Shown here piece after piece: positions 2,036 to 63,400 of a stretch of DNA of 64,000 bases. Source of the stretch: Mobula hypostoma (Eukaryota). The notes under the pieces are model-generated. The model was not told where the DNA came from, made no database searches, and saw only the letters and a list, made by a program, of their open reading frames with translations. Made by a program: the position numbers and the translations under genes. The stretch is from the NCBI RefSeq assembly GCF_963921235.1, contig NC_086108.1, positions 35,466,001-35,530,000 on the forward strand, read 5' to 3'. Every line of letters starts with the position of its first letter. Positions within the stretch are counted from its first letter, which is position 1.

Positions 2036-5000
2036 GTAATGTAGAATCTTGAAAATCAGAATATTGTGCGCTTTGAAAGTTCTGATTCGGACATCATTCA
2101 TTTCCCTCATTTGATAACTTGTGGGAAAGGGGAATGTGCTGTCGAAAATACTTGAAATGCAACTTGACATACACTCGTGAACAGCGCACCGAAGCAACGA
2201 ACGTGTATTTCTTTGACCATATATAAATATACATAATTTAACATTTTGTGAGCTTGTAAACTTTATTCTGCACCTGTTCCACTTGATGGACACACTTTAA
2301 GTGTGTAGAAATTACTGTTTGTTTCATTATTTTTTCTCTAATTATTATTTCCGAACATAAATTCTGCTGACTTTGCCCATTAAAGATTTATGATGTTATT
2401 GGTTACAGAAGTAGTGGTAAATGTTGCTGTTGTAAACTGAGTTTAGATAACTTGAAAGAGTGAGTACTTTTAATAATACACTGAAGATCCAAAACTTGGG
2501 ACTGCAAGTAAAACAGACTGTAGTCACTAATCCAGGTGATCAGCCTTCAGGAAAATCCTTTTGCCCAGTGAGTGGTAGAATGTGGCTTATAGAAGAAGTT
2601 GAAGATCATAGATGATAGATAAACGGGAGTGAGAAAGGTATGAAAGGGTTTGCAGGTGGAATGCCACAACGACCAGCAAGAATCTGCGGACCGGATCTGA
2701 AGGTCGTGATTGTATGGTGCATGAGTATTGCATCAGATTCACTGTGGAGATGGGAGCGTGTAGGCATTAAGGGATGGTAGTAGTGGTGGGGTTGGTTTGG
2801 GTAGGTGTAGAAATAAACTTTAAACCAAGTGGGTAGTTAGGTGCCAGTTGTTCTGGTCTTTTTCTCATCTGCCCATTGGTGCTCCCTATTGACATCTGTG
2901 GGCTAAAATAGGGTAAGGTGAAAGCAGTTAAAAAAAACTGCAGATATGAAAATGCTAAATTTTAAAAAAACACAGAAAACCCTGGATGCCTGCAGGTCAT
3001 TCTGCATTTGTGGGAAGAGAAGCCAAGACAATGTTTCCCGTCAAAAACCTTTCTCAGAACCCAGAATTCCAACCAATTTTCCAGTCTCCTTCTGCATGGT
3101 TAAAATGGTTCCTCCAAAGGGGGTGAGGATGTTCTATTATTTCCAGCTGTTGCCTGACCAGACTTTCTAATATTGTATATTGCAGGGGTAAAGACAAGTG
3201 GCATCGACTGAGTCTCATCCTGCAGAAAGCAGACTCGCGTGAAATCTTAGCACCACTGCTCAGCAAACCTGAAAAAAACAAGTGAGTTTTACCCAAGTCT
3301 CAGTAGGTCCCTATCGCCACTGACTGAATCTGAAATCATTAATCGCAAATACATCAGCTCAATTGTAATATTGGTAAATGATCCCATTCGTAAGAAATTA
3401 GATAAATTAATTCTTCTGAGTTTGTGTTGGTTTTAAGGTTTCTCTCCCTGACAATATATATTTGAAGGAGTCCTCAAAGATCCTATCTCTTTATTCGATA
3501 ATGATATAGTGTGTGTTAATTTAAATAAAAACTGAAAATGCTGGAAAATCTCAGCAGGCCAAGCAGCCTCTGCAGAAAGAGCAGTTTAGGGGCTCAGACT
3601 TGAAACATTAACTAATTTCTTTTTCAAAAAGATGCTGCATTTTTGCAGTATATTTTGATTCTATTTTAGAATTTCAGCATCTACTTGTTCTTTTTTTATT
3701 CCCATTTCATTAATTTAAATTTTGCTGCTTACTAATTGAAATAAAGCTAAATGCGTTGCTCAATTGCCTTCAAAGCTTAAGCACTGTAAGTGCCTCTCCA
3801 TCTAGTATCACTTCTTTATTTTATTCTAAAGTAGAATGCTTTAGAAATAAAAGTGATGAAGAATTTGAGGGGTCTGTAAGCTTCCCTTGCCTCAATCCAA
3901 ATTCAGTCTTTGGTTTTATCTCACCTGCTGACCAGAGCCCTTTCTGGTTTGTGGTTGAGTGTGTTCTTGTTTTGCAAGTACGTGCTGTAAACAACAGCAA
4001 GATCAGTAACCAGCCTCCGCTTTAGCAAATGAAACTTGCAGTGGTTTCTGGTAGTGCTGTGCAGAGTCTTGTGGGGCAGCAGGGGGAGCGGTGGATTGTA
4101 CATCTTTCTTCAGCACGCAAGCTTTCTGTTCGCATCAATAAGTTTGCTGAAGTGAAAGCAGCAAGTAATTGCGTGTGCCAGAAAAAAAATGTCAGTTGGC
4201 TTTATTCTGTCATTAAAAAGAAACAACTGACGAGGTTGCTTAAATTTAAATTACATTTTCTTTTTCTTCTCCAGCATTTATCTTGATGAACCTTCAAAAT
4301 GGGGTGAATGTCTGCACAAGCTTTTAACACATAAAAGTAAGTATCACTTGTACATTGCTGAGTTAAGCATTAAAATATGAAAGCTGCGCAGTTCAATGTA
4401 TGACTAATGGAGAGATTGACTTGAATTAATTGCCGCAAGCAGGGGTGTAATAGAGTTAAGAAGTGAAGTAAAAGCAGGTTATTTTGATGCTCAAGCCTGC
4501 CCTGCCAAACAAAGTGATCAGGGCTGTCTTTCCCCAGGCCTCATCTCATCTTCTGTGCAATTCCTACAGCCCTCAAATCCCTGGTCTTTCAAAAATGCCC
4601 CTACTTCCATTTCAAATAACCCTGATGATCTAGCCTTCCAACCCATCGACAATAGAGAATTTCAGATTTTTATTACTATTAGTTTAGACCAGTTTGGTTT
4701 CTGGGATGTTTGAGGAGACATCAGCTCAGTCAGGTTTGTATTCACCTGAGTTAAGGAGAATAAGCAGGGACCTAATTCCGACTCCAACCATTCTGATACA
4801 GATGTCGTATTGGATGGGGGAAGAATGGTTCCCCCGGCTAAGGAACCTGAATTTTTAAAAAATTAATTCAAGGGGTCCGGGTTTCCAGGCTAAGCCTAGA
4901 TGCCGTTGAGGTAGTTGTGAGCTACCTTTTTGAACAGATGCAGCCACTGGGGTGCGAGATTACCCATACTGCCATTGCAGGATTTTGAGTGAGGAATCAC

Positions 5001-51600: not shown

Positions 51601-54600
51601 CATTAATCCCCTCACCTCCCATATCAGTTCCTATTTCACTTGGCCATACTGTACGATCCCTTCTTGAGCTTTCTGCTCTGTTGATTCTGCTGTCGTTCTT
51701 AACTTTTCTTATTCTCACTTTCCCTTTATCTCCGTCCTTTATATTTCCAGTTCATTCCCTCCCCCCACTACTTAGTTTAAACACACCCATGTTGCAGAGG
51801 CAAACCTGCCTGCCAGAATGCTGGTGCCCCGCTTATTAAGGTGCAATCCGTCCCTTTGTACAATTCATCCTTACTCCAAAACATATCCCTGTGGTCCAAG
51901 AATGTAAATCCTTGATTCCTGCACCAGTTCCTCAGCTACACATTCAGATCCATTATCTCCCTGTTCTTGCCCACTCCAGCATGGGGAACTGGAAGCAAAC
52001 GGGAGGTAACCACCCTGGAAGTCCTACTTTTCAGCCTTCTTCCGAGTTCTCTGAAGTCGCGCTGTAGAATGTCTTTCCTCTTCTTCCCCACGTCATTTGT
52101 GCCAACATGCACCACCACTTCCGGATGTTCACCTTCACTCTTGAGGATTCCCTGCAATCGGTCTGTGACATCCTGGATCCTGGCACCAGGGAGGCAACAC
52201 ACCATCCTTAAATCTCACCTGTTGCCACAGAAACCCCTTTCTGTACCTCTCACTATGGAGTCCCCTACTACCACGGCTCTGTCTGACGTCTGTCTCCTCG
52301 GCTTTGCCTCAGCGCCAATTGCAGACCCTTCCGCCTCTCAGACTGGCACTGTCTTCTGTCCGGACAGCTTCCAAGAGGGAGAACCTGTTTACATCTCCCG
52401 GGATGTCCTGTACTTCAAGCATCCTTTCCTTGCTCATCGTTGTCCTCCTACTCTCTTCCTGTATCCTGGGTGAAAAGAGATTAACGCAATAGAAAGGAAG
52501 GACATAAGCCGGGAAGATGTGGAATCGATATGGGTAGAGCTGCGTAACACTAAGGGGCAGAAGACGCTGGTGGGAGTTGTGTACAGGCCACCTAACAGTA
52601 GTAGTGAGGTCGGAGATGGTATTAAACAGGAAATTAGAAATGTGTGCAATAAAGGAACAGCAGTTATAATGGGTGACTTCAATCTACATGTAGACTGGGT
52701 GAACCAAATTGGTAAAGGTGCTGAGGAAGAGGATTTCTTGGAATGTATGCGGGATGGTTTTTTGAACCAACATGTCGAGGAACCGACTAGAGAGCAGGCT
52801 ATTCTGGACTGGGTTTTGAGCAATGAGGAAGGGTTAATTAGCGATCTTGTCGTGAGAGGCCCCTTGGGTAAGAGTGACCATAATATGGTGGAATTCTTCA
52901 TTAACATGGAGAGTGACGTAGTTAATTCAGAAACAAAGGTTCTGAACTTAAAGAGGGGTAACTTTGAAGGTATGAGACGTGAATTAGCTAAGATAGACTG
53001 GCAAATGACACTTCAAGGATTGACGGTGGATATGCAATGGCAGGCATTTAAAGGTTGCATGGATGAACTACAACAATTGTTCATCCCAGTTTGGCAAAAG
53101 AATAAATCAAGGAAGGTAGTGCACCCGTGGCTGACAAGAGAAATTAGGGATAGTATCAATTCCAAAGAAGTAGCATACAAATTAGCCAGAGAAAGTGGCT
53201 CACCTGAGGACTGGGAGAAATTCAGAGTTCAGCAGAGGAGGACAAAGGGCTTAATTAGGAAGGGGAAAAAAGATTATGAGAGAAAACTGGCAGAGAACAT
53301 AAAAACGGACTGTAAAAGCTTTTATAGATATGTAAAAAGGAAAAGACTGATAAAGACAAATGTAGGTCCCCTGCAAACAGAAACAGGTGAATTGATTATG
53401 GGGAGCAAGGACATGGCAGACCAATTGAATAATTACTTTGGTTCTGTCTTCACTAAGGAGGACATAAATAATCTTCCAGAAATAGTAAGGGACAGAGGGT
53501 CCAGTGAGATGGAGGAACTGAGCGAAATACATGTTAGTAGGGAAGTGGTGTTAGGTAAATTGAAGGGATTGAAGGCAGATAAATCCCCAGGGCCAGATGG
53601 TCTGCATCCCAGAGTGCTTAAGGAAGTGGCCCAAGAAATAGTGGACGCATTAGTGATAATTTTTCAAAACTCGTTAGATTCTGGACTAGTTCCTGAGGAT
53701 TGGAGGGTGGCTAATGTAACCCCACTTTTTAAAAAAGGAGGGAGAGAGAAACCGGGGAATTATAGGCCGGTTAGCCTAACGTCGGTGGTGGGGAAACTGC
53801 TGGAGTCAGTTATCAAAGATGTGATAACAGCACATTTGGAAAGCGGTGAAATGATCGGACAAAGTCAGCATGGATTTGTGAAAGGAAAATCATGTCTGAC
53901 GAGTCTCATAGAATTTTTTGAGGATGTAACTAGTAGAGTGGATAGGGGAGAACCAGTGGATGTGGTATATTTGGATTTTCAAAAGGCTTTTGACAAGGTC
54001 CCACACAGGAGATTAGTGTGCAAACTTAAAGCACACGGTATTGGGGGTAAGGTATTGGTGTGGGTGGAGAATTGGTTAGCAGACAGGAAGCAAAGAGTGG
54101 GAATAAACGGGACCTTTTCAGAATGGCAGGCGGTGACTAGTGGGGTACCGCAAGGCTCAGTGCTGGGACCCCAGTTGTTTACAATATATATTAATGACTT
54201 GGATGAGGGAATTAAATGCAGCATCTCCAAGTTTGCGGATGACACAAAGCTGGGTGGCAGTGTTAGCAGTGAGGAGGATGCTAAGAGGATGCAGGGTGAC
54301 TTGGATAGGTTGGGTGAGTGGGCAAACTCATGGCAGATGCAATTTAATGTGGATAAATGTGAAGTTATCCACTTTGGTGGCAAAAATAGGAAAACAGATT
54401 ATTATCTGAATGGTGGCCGATTAGGAAAAGGGGAGGTGCAACGAGACCTGGGTGTCATTATACACCAGTCATTGAAAGTGGGCATGCAGGTACAGCAGGC
54501 GGTGAAAAAGGCGAACGGTATGCTGGCATTTATAGCGAGAGGATTCGAGTACAGGAGCAGGGAGGTACTACTGCAGTTGTACAAGGCCTTGGTGAGACCA

Positions 54601-55660
54601 CACCTGGAGTATTGTGTGCAGTTTTGGTCCCCTAATCTGAGGAAAGACATCTTTGCCATAGAGGGAGTACAAAGAAGGTTCACCAGATTGATTCCTGGGA
54701 TGGCAGGTCTTTCATATGAAGAAAGACTGGATGAACTGGGCTTGTACTCGTTGGAATTTAGAAGATTAAGGGGGGATCTGATTGAAACGTATAAGATCCT
54801 AAAGGGATTGGACAGGCTAGATGCGGGAAGATTGTTCCCGATGTTGGGGAGGTCCAGAACGAGGGGTCACAGTTTGAGGATAGAGGGGAAGCCTTTTAGG
54901 ACCGAGATTAGGAAAAACTTCTTCACACAGAGAGTGGTGAATCTGTGGAATTCTCTGCCACAGCAAACTGTTGAGGCCAGTTCATTAGCTATGTTTAAAA
55001 GGAAGTTAGATATGACCCTTGTGGCTACAGGGGTCAGGGGGTATGGAGGGAAGGCTGGGTTCTGAGTTGGATGATCAGCCATGATCATAATAAATGGCGG
55101 TGCAGGCTCGAAGGGCCGAATGGCCTACTCCTGCACCTATTTTCTATGTTTCTATGTTTCTATGACCTCACTGTAGGTCCTGTCCAGAAAACTCTCGTCC
55201 TCCTGGATTAACCTAACGTCATCCAGTTGCCTCTCCAGTGCTGCAACACGGTCCCTCTGAAGCTGAAACTGGACACATTTTCCGCAGGTGTAGGATCCAG
55301 AGGCACCATCAGTGTCCCTGACCTCCCACATCATGCACGCAGCACACTGAATCAGCCCAGCGGTCATCTCTTCTCCAACTGTGGCGTAGTCTCCACTCTC
55401 AGCCTCCTCGCCGAAGACTCCTGAGCCAAAGACTCGCACTTATCTCACAAGGCACTTCCCTCAACAAGGCCGCTCCCCTAGAGCGAGCTTTGCTTATATT
55501 CGCTGATAATTTCAGTAATTAGCTTCACCTGCCTCGCCTCCTTCGACCTGGAAGGTCTGGTTAGCTCGCTGCTTACAACCGGCTTTTTAAACCAGCCGCT
55601 CCTTCTCAGCCAATCCCCGCACTCACTCCTTCACCTGCCTCGCCTCCTCCGACCTCAAGG
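48698..55660 (-). mobile_element. Near-full-length CR1 LINE (ORF1+ORF2, disrupted), interrupted by family A copy 4
   Basis: 5'UTR ~55440-55660. ORF1 CAACMMWE...CGKC + coiled coil, then esterase-like VCCLPGARIQDV...HVGTND. ORF2 APE/RT pieces 48787-51718. (CTATTGT)n tail. Confidence 0.93.
52472..55163 (+). mobile_element. CR1 LINE family A, copy 4 (5'-truncated, open ORF2 remainder)
   Basis: Uninterrupted 848-aa ORF 52519-55065, (TTTCTATG)n tail. Confidence 0.97.
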
Positions 55661-56651
55661 GAGGTGTCATCTGCCTTTAAAATACCGCCTCTTCTTTGGT
55701 ATGTACTTATCCTGTGCCTTCCAAATTGCTTCCAGAATCTGAAATCTGAAATAATAACAAGGCAGCCTACAGAGAAGAGGTCATCACCCTGACACAGAAA
55801 ACAACCTCACCCTCAATGTTGCAAAAACAAAGGAGCTGGTTGTGGACTACAGGAGGAATGGAGACAGGCTAACCCCTATTGACATCAATAGATCTGGGGC
55901 TGAGGGTGAACATCTTTAAGTTCCTCGCCATACAAATCACCGAGGATGTCACGTGGACTGTACATACCAGCTGTGTGGGAAAAAAAGCACATCAGTGCCT
56001 CTTTCACCTCAGATAGTCTGAAGAAGTTCGGCTTGAGTCCCCAAATCCTAACTGTACTGTATAGCCTACAGTATAATAAGGGACTACTTTATGTTTTAGT
56101 AATATGTCATTGAATGCGCTATTAGGCGCATATTGAGCATGCGCTATTAGATGCGTATTGATCTGTACGTGTGTGCCGAGTTCAGTTTCTGCCAGTAAAG
56201 AACAATGAAACTTAGCTCCCGTCTCCAGCGTTTTTATTAATAGTATTGTGGTGTAACCAGGCCACATACACAACAAATTGGCAACGAGGTTAATGAACCT
56301 ACATCATATCGGAACGCCGTGTTTTAATTGATAACGACACTCGGAGGAAGAGTGCAAGGAACGAGCCAAGGAGCGGGAGAAGGAGGTAGAGTGAGGCCGT
56401 GAGTCTGAAAGGAAGCGGGAGCACAGCCGGGGTCGGGAACGTCGGGAGACCGAGACACAGCACATCCAGCCGAGACCACAGCCGGTGCTGACCCCCAGGG
56501 ACTGAGGGTCTGCCTGCCCCAGAAGGGAGATAAAAAGGAGTGACACTCACACATCTAGACGGAGTGCTCTCGTGGCACTAGCAAAAAGGTCATATGAGTC
56601 AAAAAGAAAACAAGGGGAAAACAGGGCTAAATTAACATAACAAAGATTGCA

Positions 56652-57420
56652 ATGATTGGAACCATTATAGCATTTGATAGCGGCATTGAAGACTGGGCAA
56701 CCTAAATTGAAAGAGTGGAGTTATATTGTGAGGCTAACAGTGTCAAGGATGAAAAGAAAACCAGCGTCTTACTCAGTATTATGGGAGCAAAAACATACGG
56801 CCTTCTACGGAGCTTGTTAACCCCTGAAAAGCCAACTGACAAAACATACAAGCAAATAGTAGACACTCTCCAACAGCATTTAAACCCCAAACCACTGGTC
56901 ATTGCTGAAAGATTTAAATTTCACAATCGGAATCAGAGCAAAAATGAAAGCATTTCTGAATATTGTGCTGAATTGCACAAATTATCAGAACATTGTCAAT
57001 TTGGAGCTGGTCTATCGGACGAGTTCAGGGATAGGTTAGTGTGTGGCACGCACTGTGAAACCACACAAAAGAAGCTTCTGTGTGAAAGAGACCTCACATT
57101 CGAGAAAGCGCTAAACATTGCAATATCAATGGAAACAGCAGCACGGGGTGCTTCTGAGATACAATAAAAATCTCTAGAATATGCCACAAATAAAATGTCA
57201 CTGAACAGAAATGAAGGAAAGAAGTGTTACCGTTGTGGGAACAGGTCACATGACCCTGATGAGAGTGCATCCCAAAGGCAAAATTAAAGTGACAGTGTCC
57301 TACGAAGACAAAACACAGCAGCTGAACCTCTATGTACTGAAAAATGGAGGACCACAGTTGCTGGGATGTGAATGGCTCAGAAAAATCCAGTTGGATTGGC
57401 ACACCATCAATGCACTAGAT
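56652..57420 (+). pseudogene. Gypsy gag (with stops, truncated Zn knuckle) plus C-terminal protease remnant
   Basis: MIGTIIAFDSGIEDWAT*IERVELYCEAN...HLNPKPLVIAERFKFHNRNQ...RDRLVCG...CYRCGNRSH, then frameshift to PKGKIKVTVSY...GGPQLLGCEWLRKIQLDW. Confidence 0.85.
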
Positions 57421-58603
57421 CAGGGGTCCCTAACCTTCTTCGCACGGCGGACTGGTTTCATATTGACGATATTCTTGCGGACCGGCCGACCGGGGGGGGG
57501 TGTGGGGGGGGAGGTGTAGGGTTGCCAAAGGACGAGAGTAGCAGTCAAATACACTGGGTTTACCCCGAGAAAGACTACAATGACCATGAAGCCTCGCGCG
57601 GGCACCAGTGCGCATGCGTGTACGGTTGTTTTCTACAAATCATTTTTGGCGATTCTGTTCGGGGGGGGAGGGGGGTCTTAATCACGACTGGAATATCGGT
57701 GATAAGTGGCTAATACACTCAATTTCCTTTCTAAAAGGGTTTATCTAACGAATTTAATATTAAACACACAGCGCATATTTTCCTCGCATGAATGTACTGA
57801 TAAGTCAATTGTCAGGGGAGCTTGAAGTAAGTTTTGAACGAACTTCCAGTAGAAGTGGTAGAGGCAGGTTCGATATTATCATTTAAAGAAAAATTGGATA
57901 GCTATATGGACAGGAAAGAAATGGTGGGTTATGGGCTGAGTGCAGGTCGGTGGGACTAGGTGAGAGTAGCGTTCGGCACGGACTAGAAGGGCTGAGATGG
58001 CCTGTTTCCATGCTGTAATTGTTAAATGGTTTTATAAGTCAATAGCATCATAACATTTTAAGTAACGTTTGGATAATAAACACGCAGCACATATTTTCCC
58101 CGTGTGAACATATAAAATCATTGCAACACACCAATATCACTGAATCAGTGGGAGCCCTGGGCTTGCTTCCCTGCAACAAGACGGTCCGATCGAGGGGTGA
58201 TTGGAGACAGCGATACTCGAAGAGGGTTCCTTATGTCCAGTCTATTCCACAATTTGGTTTTCATTTCATTCATTGCAGAGATATGTTGGAAATGGAAGCA
58301 ACGTTTTCAGTGCCTTCGTGGCTTTCTCAGGATATTTAGCCTTGACTTTAAGATCCAGAATGCCAGCAGAGATGTTATGTCAAACAGACTTCCCAGCCCG
58401 CCGTCATTTGCAAGCTCGAGGAGTTGATCTCCTTCCCGCGCTGACATGGATGACGCGCGGGTAATGACCTCGTATGCGTAATGGCTCAACAGTGGGCATG
58501 ACCAGGAATGAGGAAAGGTGCAGCTGACTCCTATCGCCAAATCATATCGCTTCCTCATGGCCCGGTAGCACATGCTTTGCAGCCCAGTGGTTGGGGACCG
58601 CTG
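57421..58603 (-). mobile_element. hAT/Charlie deletion derivative with transposase C-terminal remnant
   Basis: TIRs CAGGGGTCCCTAACC / GGTTGGGGACCGCTG, 8-bp TSD CACTAGAT/TACTAGAT. Minus-strand DQLLELANDGGL...AFWI...NRLDIRNPLRVSLSPITPR..AGKQAQGSH* (~58145-58440). Confidence 0.88.
57810..58033 (+). mobile_element. Short CR1 3' end inside the hAT element
   Basis: gaagtggtagaggcagg...catttaaagaaaaattggatag...ggcctgtttccatgctgtaa, flanked by ATAAGTCAAT (57800-57809 / 58034-58043). Confidence 0.75.
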
Positions 58604-58644
58604 TACTAGATGTGTCGACAAAGGAGGGCAGCTCGGTGGGGGAG

Positions 58645-59579
58645 ATGTCCACAGCTCTCCTCTCACCCATTGTCGACTATTACAATGATGAGGAGGAGCT
58701 AGACGGTGTCGACGATGAGACGAATGCAGTATCCGTGGCTGCGACTCGGATGAAGATACAAAGGATGCAAGGGAGACAGATATTGTCAATAAGCAGGATG
58801 ATGAGGACTACCTGGAAGTAAAAGAGCAGATGTACCAGGAGAAATTGACATCTCTCAGAAGACAGCTACAGCAATTACAGGAAGGCACTTTGCAGGAGTA
58901 TCAGAAAAGGATGAAGAAACTAGATCAACAATACAAGGGAAGAATAAGAAATGCAGAGCTTTTTCTGCAACTGGAGACAGAATAAGTGGAAAGGAATTGC
59001 ATTAAAGAGAAGAAAGCAACAGTGAAGGAATTTGAAGATAAAAAGATTGAGTTTGAAGAAAAGAAAAAGATGATTGAGAATGAGAGGCTAACAATGGAAC
59101 TCACAGGAGATTCGATGGAGGTAAAGCCAATAATGACTAGGAAACTAAGGAAGAGATCTAATGACCCTGCTCCAATTACAAACAAAAGACGAAAACCTGC
59201 ACCTGTGCAGTTAAATTACTTGTTATTAGATGAACAGATAATGGAAGATCTGTGAACTCTCAATAAGCTTAAATCTCCGAAAAGACCAGCATCTCCATCT
59301 TCTCCTGAGCATCTTCCCAGTTCTCCTGCTGAATCACCAGCACAAAGATATGAAGCACAAATAGAAGATGGAAAGTTATATTACGATAAGAGATGGTATC
59401 ATAAAGGTCAGGCTATCTATTTGGAATTTAAGGAGCATACAACGATTGGCTGTGTAATTAGCTCAGTTGGAACAAATGAGATACGGTTAAGGAAGACAAG
59501 TGATAGCACAAAGGTGCGTATATATCTAGGACAGCTACACAGAGGAGTCTTCATTATACCAAGGTTATCTGCTACCTAG
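58645..59579 (+). pseudogene. SUDS3: Processed (intronless) pseudogene of Sin3 HDAC corepressor component SDS3
   Basis: MSTALLSPIVDYYNDEEELD...KEQMYQEKL...[19 protein letters not shown]...[21 protein letters not shown]...[16 protein letters not shown]...[15 protein letters not shown]...[17 protein letters not shown]. Frameshift at ~58720, stops at 58983 and 59253. Confidence 0.95.
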
Positions 59580-60439
59580 AATTCTTAGCAAGTTGGAGGT
59601 GGAATTCTTAACTCACTATGCTCAGAGGTCAACTTTTAACGACTTTTATATGGAAATCTGTATTAAAACAAACAAGTTTATTGACAGACATTACCCAGAG
59701 AGACAAAGAAGGCCCCCCCCCCTCCGCCAGAGACCTGAGTTATAAATGGGTCTTAGACCAAAAGTAAAAAAAAGGCTTGTTATAATTTGACATATTACGT
59801 TACACTGTTATAATTTGATATTATTAAGTTACTAAGTAAACAAATATTAGGCATTTGTATGTTAAGGGTAAACATATTTATTTGTTTAGAATATACACTA
59901 TTAAAATAAAAGGGGAGGAGTGTACCGTATAGTAAGGGACTAGTTTATGTTTTTGCAATATGTCATTGAGTGCGCTATTAGGCACATATTGATCTGTACG
60001 TGTGTGCCAAGTTCGGTTTCTGCCAGTAAAGAACTATGAACTTAGCTCCCGTCTCCAGCAGTTTTATTAATAGTATTGTTGTGTAACCAGGCCATATACA
60101 CAACACTAATGACTATCTACAGGGGCACAATTGAGAGCATCCTGACTATCTGTATCACTGCCTGGTATGGGAAATGCACTTCTCACAATCACAGGACTCT
60201 GCAGAGAGTGGTGCAGATAGCACAGCGTAATTGTAGATGTGAAATTCCCAATATTCAGGACATCTGCAGAAACAGGTGCACAAAAAGGGACCATAGGATA
60301 ATTGGGGACCCGAGTCACCACAACCACAAACTGTTCCAGCTGCTACCAATTGGGAAACGGCACCTCAATGTAAAAGCCAGGACCAACAGGCTCTGGGACA
60401 GCATCTTCCACCAGGCCATCAGACTGAAGCAAGTTTCAG

Positions 60440-63400
60440 TCGAAGCAAGCAGCTGAGAAGAAGGGAGTGAAGAAATCGGGTAGAAAAAGTCTTTTTTTTA
60501 AACACTGCTCGGGGAGAAGGGTCTGCACTGCACAGGCGTGTGATGTAGCACGCCAAGGTTTAAAAGCAGACCACCATATACAGCGGCCATCGTTGTAGCC
60601 GCCATCGTCGGAGTGGACTGAGTCAGAGTGGGATGGCTTTGGTTCAACAGACTTCGGCGAGAACAGGCAGAGGCCAAGGTTGGTTCCTGTAAGTTTTTTG
60701 TTTAGATTGTTTAGAGTAGAGAGAATGCCAGGCAGGATGTTGGAATGCTCCTCTTGCAGGATGTGGGAAGTCAGGGAGCCCTCCGGTGTCCCTGCCAATG
60801 ACACCTGCAAGAAGTGCATCCAGCTGCAGCTCCTGACAAACCGCGTTAGGGAACTGGAGCAGGAGCTGCATGACCTGCGGATCATTCGGGAGAATGAGGT
60901 GTTTATAGATAGTAGCTTCAGGGAGGTAGTTATGCCAAAGGAGCAGCGCACAGGCAATTGGGTTACTGTCAGGCGAGGGAAGGGGAAAGGGCAGGCAGAG
61001 CAGGGTTCCCCTGTGGCCATTCCCCTCAACAACAAGTATACCGCATTGGATACTGTTGGGGGGGATGACTTACCTGGGACAAGCTGTAGTAGCCGGATCT
61101 CTGGCACTGAGTCTGGCTCTGCAGTGCAGAAGGGAGGGGGGAGAAAGAGGAGAGCGGTAGTGATAGGGGACTCGATAGTTAGAGGTGCAGATAGGAGGTT
61201 CTGTGGTCGTGACAGAGAATCCAGGATAGTTTGTTGCCTCCCGGGTGCCAGGGTCAAGGATGTCTCTGAATCGCTTGCATGACATTCTGAAGTGGGAGGG
61301 TGACCAGTCAGATGTCGTGGTGCACGTCGGTACCAATGACACAGCAAGGAAGAGTGAGGAGGTCCTGGAGAGTGAGTGTAGAGAGCTTGGTAGGAAGTTG
61401 AAAAGCAGGACCTCAAGGGTGGTAACCTCAGGATTGCTACCCGTGCCACGTGCCAGTGAGGGTAAGAATAGGATGCTCTGGGGGATGAACAAGTGGCTGA
61501 GGAACTGGTGTAGGAGGCAGGGTTTCAGATTTCAGGATCATTGGGACCTCTTCTGGGGCAGGTGGGACCTGTACAAGAGAGACGGGTTACACTTGAACTA
61601 CAGGGAGACCAATATCCTTTCAAGGAGGCTTGTTAGTGCTATTGGAGAGGCTTTAAACTAGATTTGCAGGGGGATGGGAACCAGAGTGCCAGAGCTGACA
61701 GTGTGGGTGGGGTGAAAATAAATGATGTTAAAAGTTCAAACAAATCCGCTAATAGAAAGGTTGTGAGTGGTGGTAAAAATCTTCTGAGGTGTATATATTT
61801 CAATGCTAGGAGTATTGCGGGGAAGGCAGATGAGTTGAGGGCGGGGATTGACACTTGGAATTATGACGTTATAGCATTAGTGAAACGTGGCTGCAGGAGG
61901 GGCAGGACTGGCAGCTTAATATTCCAGGGTTCCAATGTTTCAGATGTGATCGAGGCAGAGGAATGAAAAGTGGGGGAGTAGCATTGCTTGTTAGGGAAAA
62001 TACTACAGCAGTGCTCAGGCAGGACAGATTAGAGGGCTTGTCTACTGAGTCCTTATGGGTGGAGTTGAGAAACAGGAAAGGTATGGCCACATTAGTGGGA
62101 TTGTATTACAGACCACCCAATAGTCAACGAGATTTGGAAGAGCAAATCTGCAGAGAGATAGCAGGCAACTGCAGGAAACATAAAGTTGTGGTGGTAGGGG
62201 ATTTTAATTTTCCATATATTGATTGGGACTCCCATACTGTTAGGGGTCTAGATGGTTTAGAGTTTGTAAAATGTGTTCAGGAAAGTTTTCTAAATCAGTA
62301 TATAGAGGGACCAACTAGAGGGGATGCAATATTGGATCTCCTGTTAGGAAACGAGTTAGGACAAGTAATGGAAGTCTGTGTAGGGGAGCAATTTGGTTCC
62401 AGTGATCATAACACCATTAGTTTCAACTTGATCATGGACAAGGATAGATCTGGTCCTAGGGTTGAGGTTCTGAACTGGAAGAAGGCCAAATTTGAAGAAA
62501 TGAGAAAAGATCTAAAAAGTGTGGATTGGGACAGGATGTTCTCTGGCAAAGATGTGATCAGTAGGTGGGAAGCCTTCAAAGGAGAAATTCTGAGAGTGCA
62601 GAGTTTGTATGTTCCTGTCAGGATTAAAGGCAAAGTGAATAGGAATAAGGAACCTTGGTTCTCAAGGGATATTGCAACTCTGATAAAGAAACGGAGGGAG
62701 CTATATGACATCTATAGGAAACAGGGAGTAAATAAGGTGCTTGAGGAGTATAAGAAGAGCAAGAAAATACTTAAGAAAGAAATCAGAAGGGCTAAAAGAA
62801 GACATGAGGTTGCCTTGGCAGTCAAAGTGAAGGATAATCCAAAGAGCTTTTACAGGTATATTAAGAGCAAAAGGATTGTAAGGGATAAAATTGGTCCTCT
62901 TGAAGATCAGAGTGGTCGGCTATGTGCGGAACCAAAGGAATTGGGGGAGATCTTAAATAGGTTTTTTGCGTCTGTATTTACTAAGGAAACTGGCATGAAG
63001 TCTATGGAATTGAGGGAATCAAGTAGTGAGATCATGGAAACTGTACAGACTGAAAAGGAGGAGGTGCTTGCCACTTTGAGGAAAATTAAAGTGGATAAAT
63101 CTCCGGGACCTGACAGAGTGTTCCCTCGGACCTTGAAGGAGACTAGTGTTGAAATTGCAGAGGCCCTAGCAGAAATATTTAAAATGTTGCTGTCTACAGG
63201 TGAGGTGCCGGAGGATTGGAGAGTGGCTCATGTTGTTCCGTTGTTTAAAAAAGGATCGAAAAGTAAACTGGGAAATTATAGGCCGGTAAGTTTAACGTCG
63301 GTAGTAAGTAAATTATTGGAGGGAGTACTAAGAGACAGAATCTACAAGCATTTGGATAGACAGGGACTTATTAGGGAGAGTCAACATGGCTTTGTGCGTG

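Follow-up and report, generated by a model that had tools for sequence, protein, structure and literature searches.

A full-length coding copy of SUDS3, found in a 64-kb stretch of Mobula hypostoma DNA (the window, 64,000 nucleotides (nt) in all), lies inside a long terminal repeat (LTR) element of 4,053 bases (56053-60105) that also contains the junction between a Gypsy gag/protease (pro) region and the SUDS3 reading frame. The phase between Gag-Pro and SUDS3 is real and ancestral, is present in two ray families and is compatible with chance. The explanation favoured here, which appears rather likely, is that an SUDS3 mRNA was captured by an LTR element through template switching and that the resulting unit then spread with SUDS3 as a passenger and decayed neutrally.

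In the window, the protease frame and SUDS3 are separated by a hAT-like non-autonomous DNA transposon of 1,183 bases (57421-58603, no strand assigned), which lies within the linker between the protease and the reverse transcriptase (RT). It is flanked by an 8-bp target duplication (left copy 57413-57420, right copy 58604-58611) in which seven of the eight bases are equal, and its terminal inverted repeats match at 13 of 15 bases; short inverted repeats of this kind and an 8-bp duplication are the features of the hAT-like class. An earlier, sequence-only reading of this DNA had claimed that removal of 57421-58611 joins the protease frame to the SUDS3 ATG in phase and without a stop, and this is borne out. 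The insert plus one target duplication amounts to 1,191 bases, a multiple of three; division by three leaves a remainder of 1 for the protease codon starts (57205 and 57421), for position 58612 and for the SUDS3 ATG (58645); and no stop occurs in 57262-57420 or in 58612-58719.

The residues that follow the hAT on its right side (58609-58647) are similar to the linker between protease and RT in Gypsy relatives, and the hAT therefore landed inside Gypsy sequence. The comparison was made with the 15 of 119 Gypsy relatives that match the anchor pattern. Over 4, 10 and 12 residues, the linker score was equalled by 107, 31 and 50, respectively, of 20,000 random peptides from the window, and over 10 residues the other two frames scored lower than the in-phase frame against 13 of the 15 relatives, with one tie and one higher score. 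Because the hAT lies inside the Gypsy linker, phase across it is automatic and is expected with certainty. The informative junction is probably a single capture event inside the 33-nt spacer (58612-58644), which consists mainly of Gypsy linker, and probably falls in the last third of that spacer, near the ATG. Such a junction is in phase one time in three by chance, and a single event serves for all copies. The caveat attached to the earlier claim, that one in-frame junction in three arises by chance, thus holds for in-phase capture, but it belongs to the junction near the ATG and not to the hAT site. The accompanying statement that SUDS3 sits where RT normally starts is about right, as the SUDS3 Met occupies position 13 of the linker, immediately ahead of the first helix on the RT side of the relative P0006. 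A possible marker of the switch point, the likeness of the Gly-Asp that precedes the Met in 10 of 15 extended SUDS3 records to the Gly-Glu found here, was rejected as too weak; the teleost-like mRNA L001 has a different leader, and siblings read Gly-Lys.

The phase is an ancestral family trait that predates the hAT, because two predicted gene models without a hAT, P0163 of Mobula hypostoma and P0423 of Hemitrygon akajei, which represent two ray families, contain the same 12-residue link from the protease tail to SUDS3. Their spacer has the length and frame of that in the window copy, so that the link is in phase in all three copies in which it can be seen in that frame, and residues 1-66 of P0423 match the gag of the window copy at 76%. 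These two, both partial, were the only ones to match the Gypsy side among the 307 proteins of the SUDS3 search. The SUDS3 part carries marks of its own. Of 86 proteins that contain the flanking motif, seven have a gap of eight residues, namely the window copy and six Mobula 'SDS3-like' models from five loci, whose contigs differ in length; P187T and S271G are present in all seven copies, and S43R in five of the seven shown, across Mobula, Hypanus and Hemitrygon. Because S43R also occurs in the Hypanus and Hemitrygon models, subfamilies span the Dasyatidae and Myliobatidae. The gap, substitutions and junction shared by dispersed Mobula and Hemitrygon models, with S43R also in Hypanus, indicate that the whole unit was re-copied secondarily.

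The two models also have individual peculiarities. P0163 joins the Gypsy leader directly to the protease tail (matches at 56361-56492 and 57412-57420) and skips gag, which may reflect either a spliced subgenomic RNA able to express SUDS3 without Gag or a genomic deletion; in the same model, the SUDS3 start Met reads Ile. P0423 consists of gag, the protease tail and about 57 SUDS3 residues followed by a cold-shock (Y-box) domain, which may be a second captured mRNA in this sibling or the product of a model spliced into a neighbouring retrocopy.

It is likely that the founder encoded one Gag-Pro-SUDS3 frame, because relatives encode Gag-Pol in a single frame (P0006, 1,311 amino acids (aa)) and the link is in phase in three copies of three. 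The suggestion that the original chimera could have encoded such a polyprotein is supported to the extent that the in-phase junction is older than the hAT and that Gag-Pol is a single frame, but no continuous copy was found. Searches with Gag and with SUDS3 proteins did not reveal a continuous Gag-protease-SUDS3 protein, a negative result that is weak for masked repeats. No Sds3 domain was present among the 120 listed of 233 long Gag matches, and Gag, protease and RT domains were absent in 21 long SUDS3 matches. Annotation masks repeats, and gene models as a rule skip repeats that are broken or masked. A metagenome scan returned three loci, none of which matched the Gypsy side, and for viral contigs the count was 0 of 49 candidates. 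Of 24 sequencing runs listed, 20 contained part of the stretch but none contained half of its words, and no RNA run was among them; these runs bear on neither siblings nor expression.

The copy in the window is broken in eight places: the first codon of gag, which is ATT where relatives have Met; two gag stops (56703 and 57165); a deletion with a frame change between gag and pro; the hAT; a frame change in SUDS3 (58720-58721); and two SUDS3 stops (58983 and 59253). The gag stops and the three SUDS3 breaks had not been reported in the sequence-only reading. The gag/pro break that it had placed at about 57262 is real, and the last Cys of the knuckle and the catalytic motif are indeed gone, but the loss is larger than had been thought. 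Set against the 10 of 28 relatives in which both of its ends could be fixed, the deletion removes 123-144 codons, and in all 10 the lost segment includes, in addition to the last Cys of the first knuckle, the D[TS]G motif and the second CCHC knuckle in its entirety. This deletion appears to be private to the window copy.

With Gag and protease homologous to Gypsy polyproteins but no RT, RNase H or integrase, the element can be classified as a non-autonomous derivative of Ty3/Gypsy. Its features lie on the plus strand and are enclosed by a 5-bp target-site duplication (left 56048-56052, right 60106-60110) in which four of five bases are equal, with one mismatch. The LTRs (5′ LTR 56053-56275, 3′ LTR 59921-60105) both have TG...CA ends, and the 5′ LTR has extra segments of 12 and 25 nt relative to the 3′ LTR, to which it was aligned; the pair differs by 13 substitutions at 185 aligned positions, a Kimura two-parameter (K2P) distance of 0.074. 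A primer-binding-site-like sequence (56276-56292), recognized by its position and TGG start alone, adjoins the 5′ LTR and is followed by a Gypsy 5′ leader (56293-56645), in which 56361-56492 resembles the N-terminus of the Mobula model P0163 (E 1e-9). The decayed gag (56646-57263) ends within the first CCHC knuckle and is 62-72% identical over about 206 aa to Gypsy Gag-Pol proteins of fishes (P0003-P0012). The C-terminal half of the aspartic protease (57262-57420) is in a different frame from gag and was assigned by tblastn to relatives; its match to Pfam RVP (E 0.031) is below the cut-off. RT, RNase H and integrase, all present in the relative P0006, are absent between the LTRs. The SUDS3 copy (58645-59579) is followed by a putative SUDS3 3′ untranslated region (UTR) of about 100 nt without poly(A) (59580-59685), so assigned from its place between the SUDS3 stop and the pol tail, and by the last Gypsy pol codons (RHYPERQRRPPP; 59686-59721), with the motif R-R-Y/N-P-x-R...P that ends 13 of 14 full-length Gypsy relatives compared. 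A polypurine tract (59908-59920) stands immediately 5′ of the 3′ LTR. Without the hAT the element measures 2,862 bases, and with the missing 123-144 codons restored it would measure 3,231-3,294. Within the 64-kb window the element was found only once, and so were those hAT pieces that were tested.

The SUDS3 copy is in sense orientation and has neither poly(A) nor a duplication around it. It is intronless, as three exons of the intron-bearing SUDS3 locus L002 map to adjoining stretches of the copy, and it matches Pfam Sds3 (E 1.5e-6). Compared with Mobula birostris SUDS3 (P0124), its identity is 92% over aa 1-25 and 84% over aa 26-327. Between the stop and the 3′ LTR are about 340 nt, and the native end of pol is close by. 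The copy also carries, near 59050, the 8-codon deletion of the family, which removes residues that are 96-100% conserved in 133 orthologue records and fall within the Pfam Sds3 region (54-166 in P0124). This in-frame loss can be explained by slippage, because in the SUDS3 loci L001 and L003 the segment is flanked by two in-phase Glu-Leu codon repeats.

The extant copies decay neutrally at the protein level. The seven copies differ from the parent at 7-10% of sites, and six of them differ from one another at 12-17%, which is close to a star. When a conserved site is defined as one that is the same in at least 95% of the 133 orthologue records, 80 of 101 private changes fall at conserved sites, compared with 82% of sites that are conserved (P 0.44); for the window copy alone, 24 of 27 differences do so. 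In a held-out test, in which conservation was set on 67 records and scored on the other 66, the orthologues had 131 of 1,414 differences (9%) at conserved sites; counted as distinct changes, the proportion was 97 of 118 in the copies versus 69 of 170 in the 66 held-out orthologues (P 9e-13). From the LTR divergence, 0.037 per copy, one would expect 7.8-8.6% amino-acid change and 1.4 stops, and the window copy has 19 private changes and two stops in 264 sites. Tested as a retrogene, its SUDS3 has neither an intact frame (one frame change, two stops) nor purifying selection, and constraint is no stronger in P0126 and P0127, which are open-frame models, than in other copies. P187T and S271G both hit sites that are 96-100% conserved, and all three universal changes affect conserved residues, which argues against normal SUDS3 function on the master lineage. 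Recurrent changes were also observed at Arg212, Arg308 and Arg322, to Gln, His, Cys, Trp or a stop (in P0122, P0126, P0163, P0244, P0125, P0127 and the window copy), a pattern that would fit CpG decay in methylated DNA.

Template switching and trans-mobilization would link the anatomy, the phase, the shared junction, the shared marks and the neutral decay in the following way. A Gypsy retrotransposon would have packaged an SUDS3 mRNA alongside its own RNA, and its reverse transcriptase would have switched from the protease-RT linker to a point just before the SUDS3 start codon, landing in phase by chance. A second switch, about 100 nt into the SUDS3 3′ UTR, would have led back to the last pol codons, so that the complete SUDS3 coding sequence, in spliced form, would have taken the place of RT, RNase H and integrase; the LTRs, primer site, leader, gag, protease and polypurine tract would have been retained. 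This unit would then have spread non-autonomously with enzymes supplied by intact relatives, either earlier than the split between stingrays and devil rays or across it, with the 8-codon SUDS3 deletion fixed early in the family and SUDS3 carried as a passenger. Finally, the window copy would have inserted into a long interspersed element (LINE), decayed, lost the segment from the knuckle to the catalytic site and gained the hAT within its Gypsy sequence.

Several points weigh against capture followed by passive spread. Any retrotransposon sequence is expected to decay neutrally once inserted, which leaves room for a function of SUDS3 during replication. The universal changes are few, two substitutions and one in-frame deletion, with no shared stop or frameshift, which fits either a short interval or a selected open frame, and protein records are biased towards open frames. 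P0163 and P0423 skip most of gag-pro and are therefore silent on the state of that segment. Moreover, both the private status of the gag/pro deletion and the continuity of the founder frame are reached by inference.

It is unlikely that the master that spread already lacked the second knuckle and the catalytic site, in which case the phase would be a relic of the capture. The window copy does have the deletion with its frame change, neither hAT-free model includes the segment from the knuckle to the catalytic site, and no high-identity ray Gag was seen among the 120 listed Gag matches, of which the best with full coverage reached 76%; however, the silence of gene models is weak, given what they usually skip. 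That SUDS3 served the element is quite unlikely. In the form considered, which is as doubtful, the founder Gag-Pro-SUDS3 would be cut at the site of RT release, and the SUDS3 set free by the protease, eight residues short in its coiled coil, would enter Sin3L/HDAC complexes as a decoy, poison them and weaken germ-line silencing of the element, which would then spread, a chain of events to which we give little credence. The capture of an entire coding sequence, in phase and at the boundary of protease and RT, a shared deletion of eight conserved residues in the Pfam Sds3 region and the lack of any stop common to the seven copies are in its favour. So are, as given in the parts of the sources drawn on here, the dimerization of the complex by Sds3 through an antiparallel coiled coil (PMC8800102), the requirement for SIN3A in the repression of endogenous retroviruses in mouse embryonic stem cells (PMC9410877) and the listing of SUDS3 as one of the five genes with the most retrocopies in cartilaginous fishes in a Vertebrate Genomes Project (VGP) preprint (10.64898/2026.06.26.734816). 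Nevertheless, a single capture has a one-in-three chance of being in phase, the deletion is explained by slippage, P187T and S271G lie at sites that are 96-100% conserved, constraint was detected in no copy and the fused protein was not found in the searches. In addition, a trans-acting factor would presumably help all elements alike, so that selection on this one would be weak. If constraint on the cargo along internal branches were true, this would be a rare animal retrotransposon that turns a host silencing subunit against silencing; if the decoy were true, a vertebrate retrotransposon would have turned a captured subunit of the machinery that silences it into an anti-silencing factor and so have spread through stingrays and devil rays.

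The phase could also have been favoured for the RNA and not for the protein, if a frame that stays open towards the 3′ end escapes nonsense-mediated decay and keeps Gag made in cis; in-phase captures would then have spread better with any cargo. The stop about 340 nt from the 3′ LTR, near the native end of pol, would suit this, as would a sole shared indel that keeps the frame and shared substitutions that ignore SUDS3 conservation; but here too there is only a single event, and many LTR elements that are non-autonomous spread although they have no long open frame, which makes such an advantage very unlikely. Domestication of some open-frame Mobula copies as SUDS3 paralogues, to which P0126 and P0127 might point as 311-aa models that run from the native start to the native end, is highly improbable, since their differences from the parent fall at conserved sites in 18 of 22 and 23 of 26 cases, which is the random rate, and a simulation that leaves out indels keeps 24-26% of copies of equal age free of new stops. 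Practically negligible is the chance that a processed pseudogene made by a LINE landed in a Gypsy element. LINEs are abundant and young in the window, and retrocopies outside mammals are linked to CR1/Tx1 LINEs in the VGP preprint (10.64898/2026.06.26.734816), but the cargo has no poly(A) or duplication around it, about 900 pol codons are replaced, as opposed to being interrupted, the pol tail starts again about 100 nt past the stop, and the junction recurs in two ray families.

Other repeats in the window were also noted. A LINE-like frame is interrupted by the element (55930-56052, resuming at 60106-60450); this piece has no Pfam match and is presumably of the Rex1/Babar type. On the plus strand at 52474-55065 lies a stop-free LINE frame of 863 aa with endonuclease and RT domains, and this LINE family is young, because pieces 92-99% identical to it occur elsewhere in the window. 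Inside the hAT, a 47-aa piece on the minus strand has no Pfam or Atlas match. Frameshifted peptide pieces on the minus strand at 58190-58450, likewise without such a match, are taken by us to resemble the C-terminus of a Buster/ZBED8 transposase. The stretch 57830-58035 of the hAT, which is flanked by two diverged copies of about 40 bp (57751-57792 and 58069-58110), presumably resembles the 3′ end of a LINE and has no match elsewhere in the window.

A single LTR capture copied many times is a likely reason for the rank of SUDS3 among the most retrocopied genes of cartilaginous fishes, as opposed to many independent retropositions or selective retention; SUDS3 is not a classic highly expressed housekeeping gene. 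As far as the consulted text of the VGP preprint goes, such counts are credited to germline expression, non-LTR elements and selective filtering, whereas one LTR capture is proposed here, and PIWIL2 and DND1 top its amphibian retrocopy list (10.64898/2026.06.26.734816). These two genes, and the remaining top genes of cartilaginous fishes, may likewise have been carried along by elements that multiplied. In Mobula, Hypanus and Hemitrygon, several genes that RefSeq calls 'SDS3-like' are probably copies of the element in decay, by which gene counts are inflated. No publication on a SUDS3-carrying element was found among the papers listed in literature searches, bioRxiv supplements being outside the search, and SUDS3, SDS3 and Sin3 are absent from the main text of the manta and devil-ray genome preprint (10.64898/2026.10.27.761883).

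Among the systems closest to the ray element are K02A2.6-like Gypsy elements of fishes (P0003, P0006, P0008), which it resembles in protease tail, linker and pol-end motif and whose Gag is 62-72% identical to its own, but RT, RNase H and integrase are missing from it. Acutely transforming retroviruses encode gag-onc fusions, are replication-defective and depend on helpers. The ray element is similar to them in its defective genome, in a host coding sequence in phase behind Gag and in spread that would depend on helpers; unlike them, it has no env between its LTRs, shows no selection on the cargo and has a continuous fused frame in no copy observed. Thus, of the features of Gag-host fusions, the in-phase junction is present and cargo selection is absent, the extant copies being neutral. 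Maize Bs1, as described in the part of PMC5131818 used here, is likewise an LTR element with captured host coding sequence and with switch points common to copies and species, but it contains partial exons of three genes and is present in one to five copies, whereas the ray family carries one full gene without constraint. In the LTR-mediated retrocopies treated in the same portion of that source (PMC5131818), a section of the internal frame is exchanged through two changes of template, and the resulting unit propagates non-autonomously. The ray element is like them in that a sense copy of an mRNA replaces the internal frame, has no poly(A) and is part of a unit that was re-copied, but the mRNAs there are often partly duplicated, while here the whole coding sequence is present, in phase, in three ray genera. 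Since the copy is intronless, has the same LTR element on both sides with the internal frame replaced, lacks poly(A) and a duplication at the cargo and has a duplication at the LTR ends, the SUDS3-carrying unit can, on these sequence features, be assigned to the LTR-mediated retrocopies, which are a known kind.

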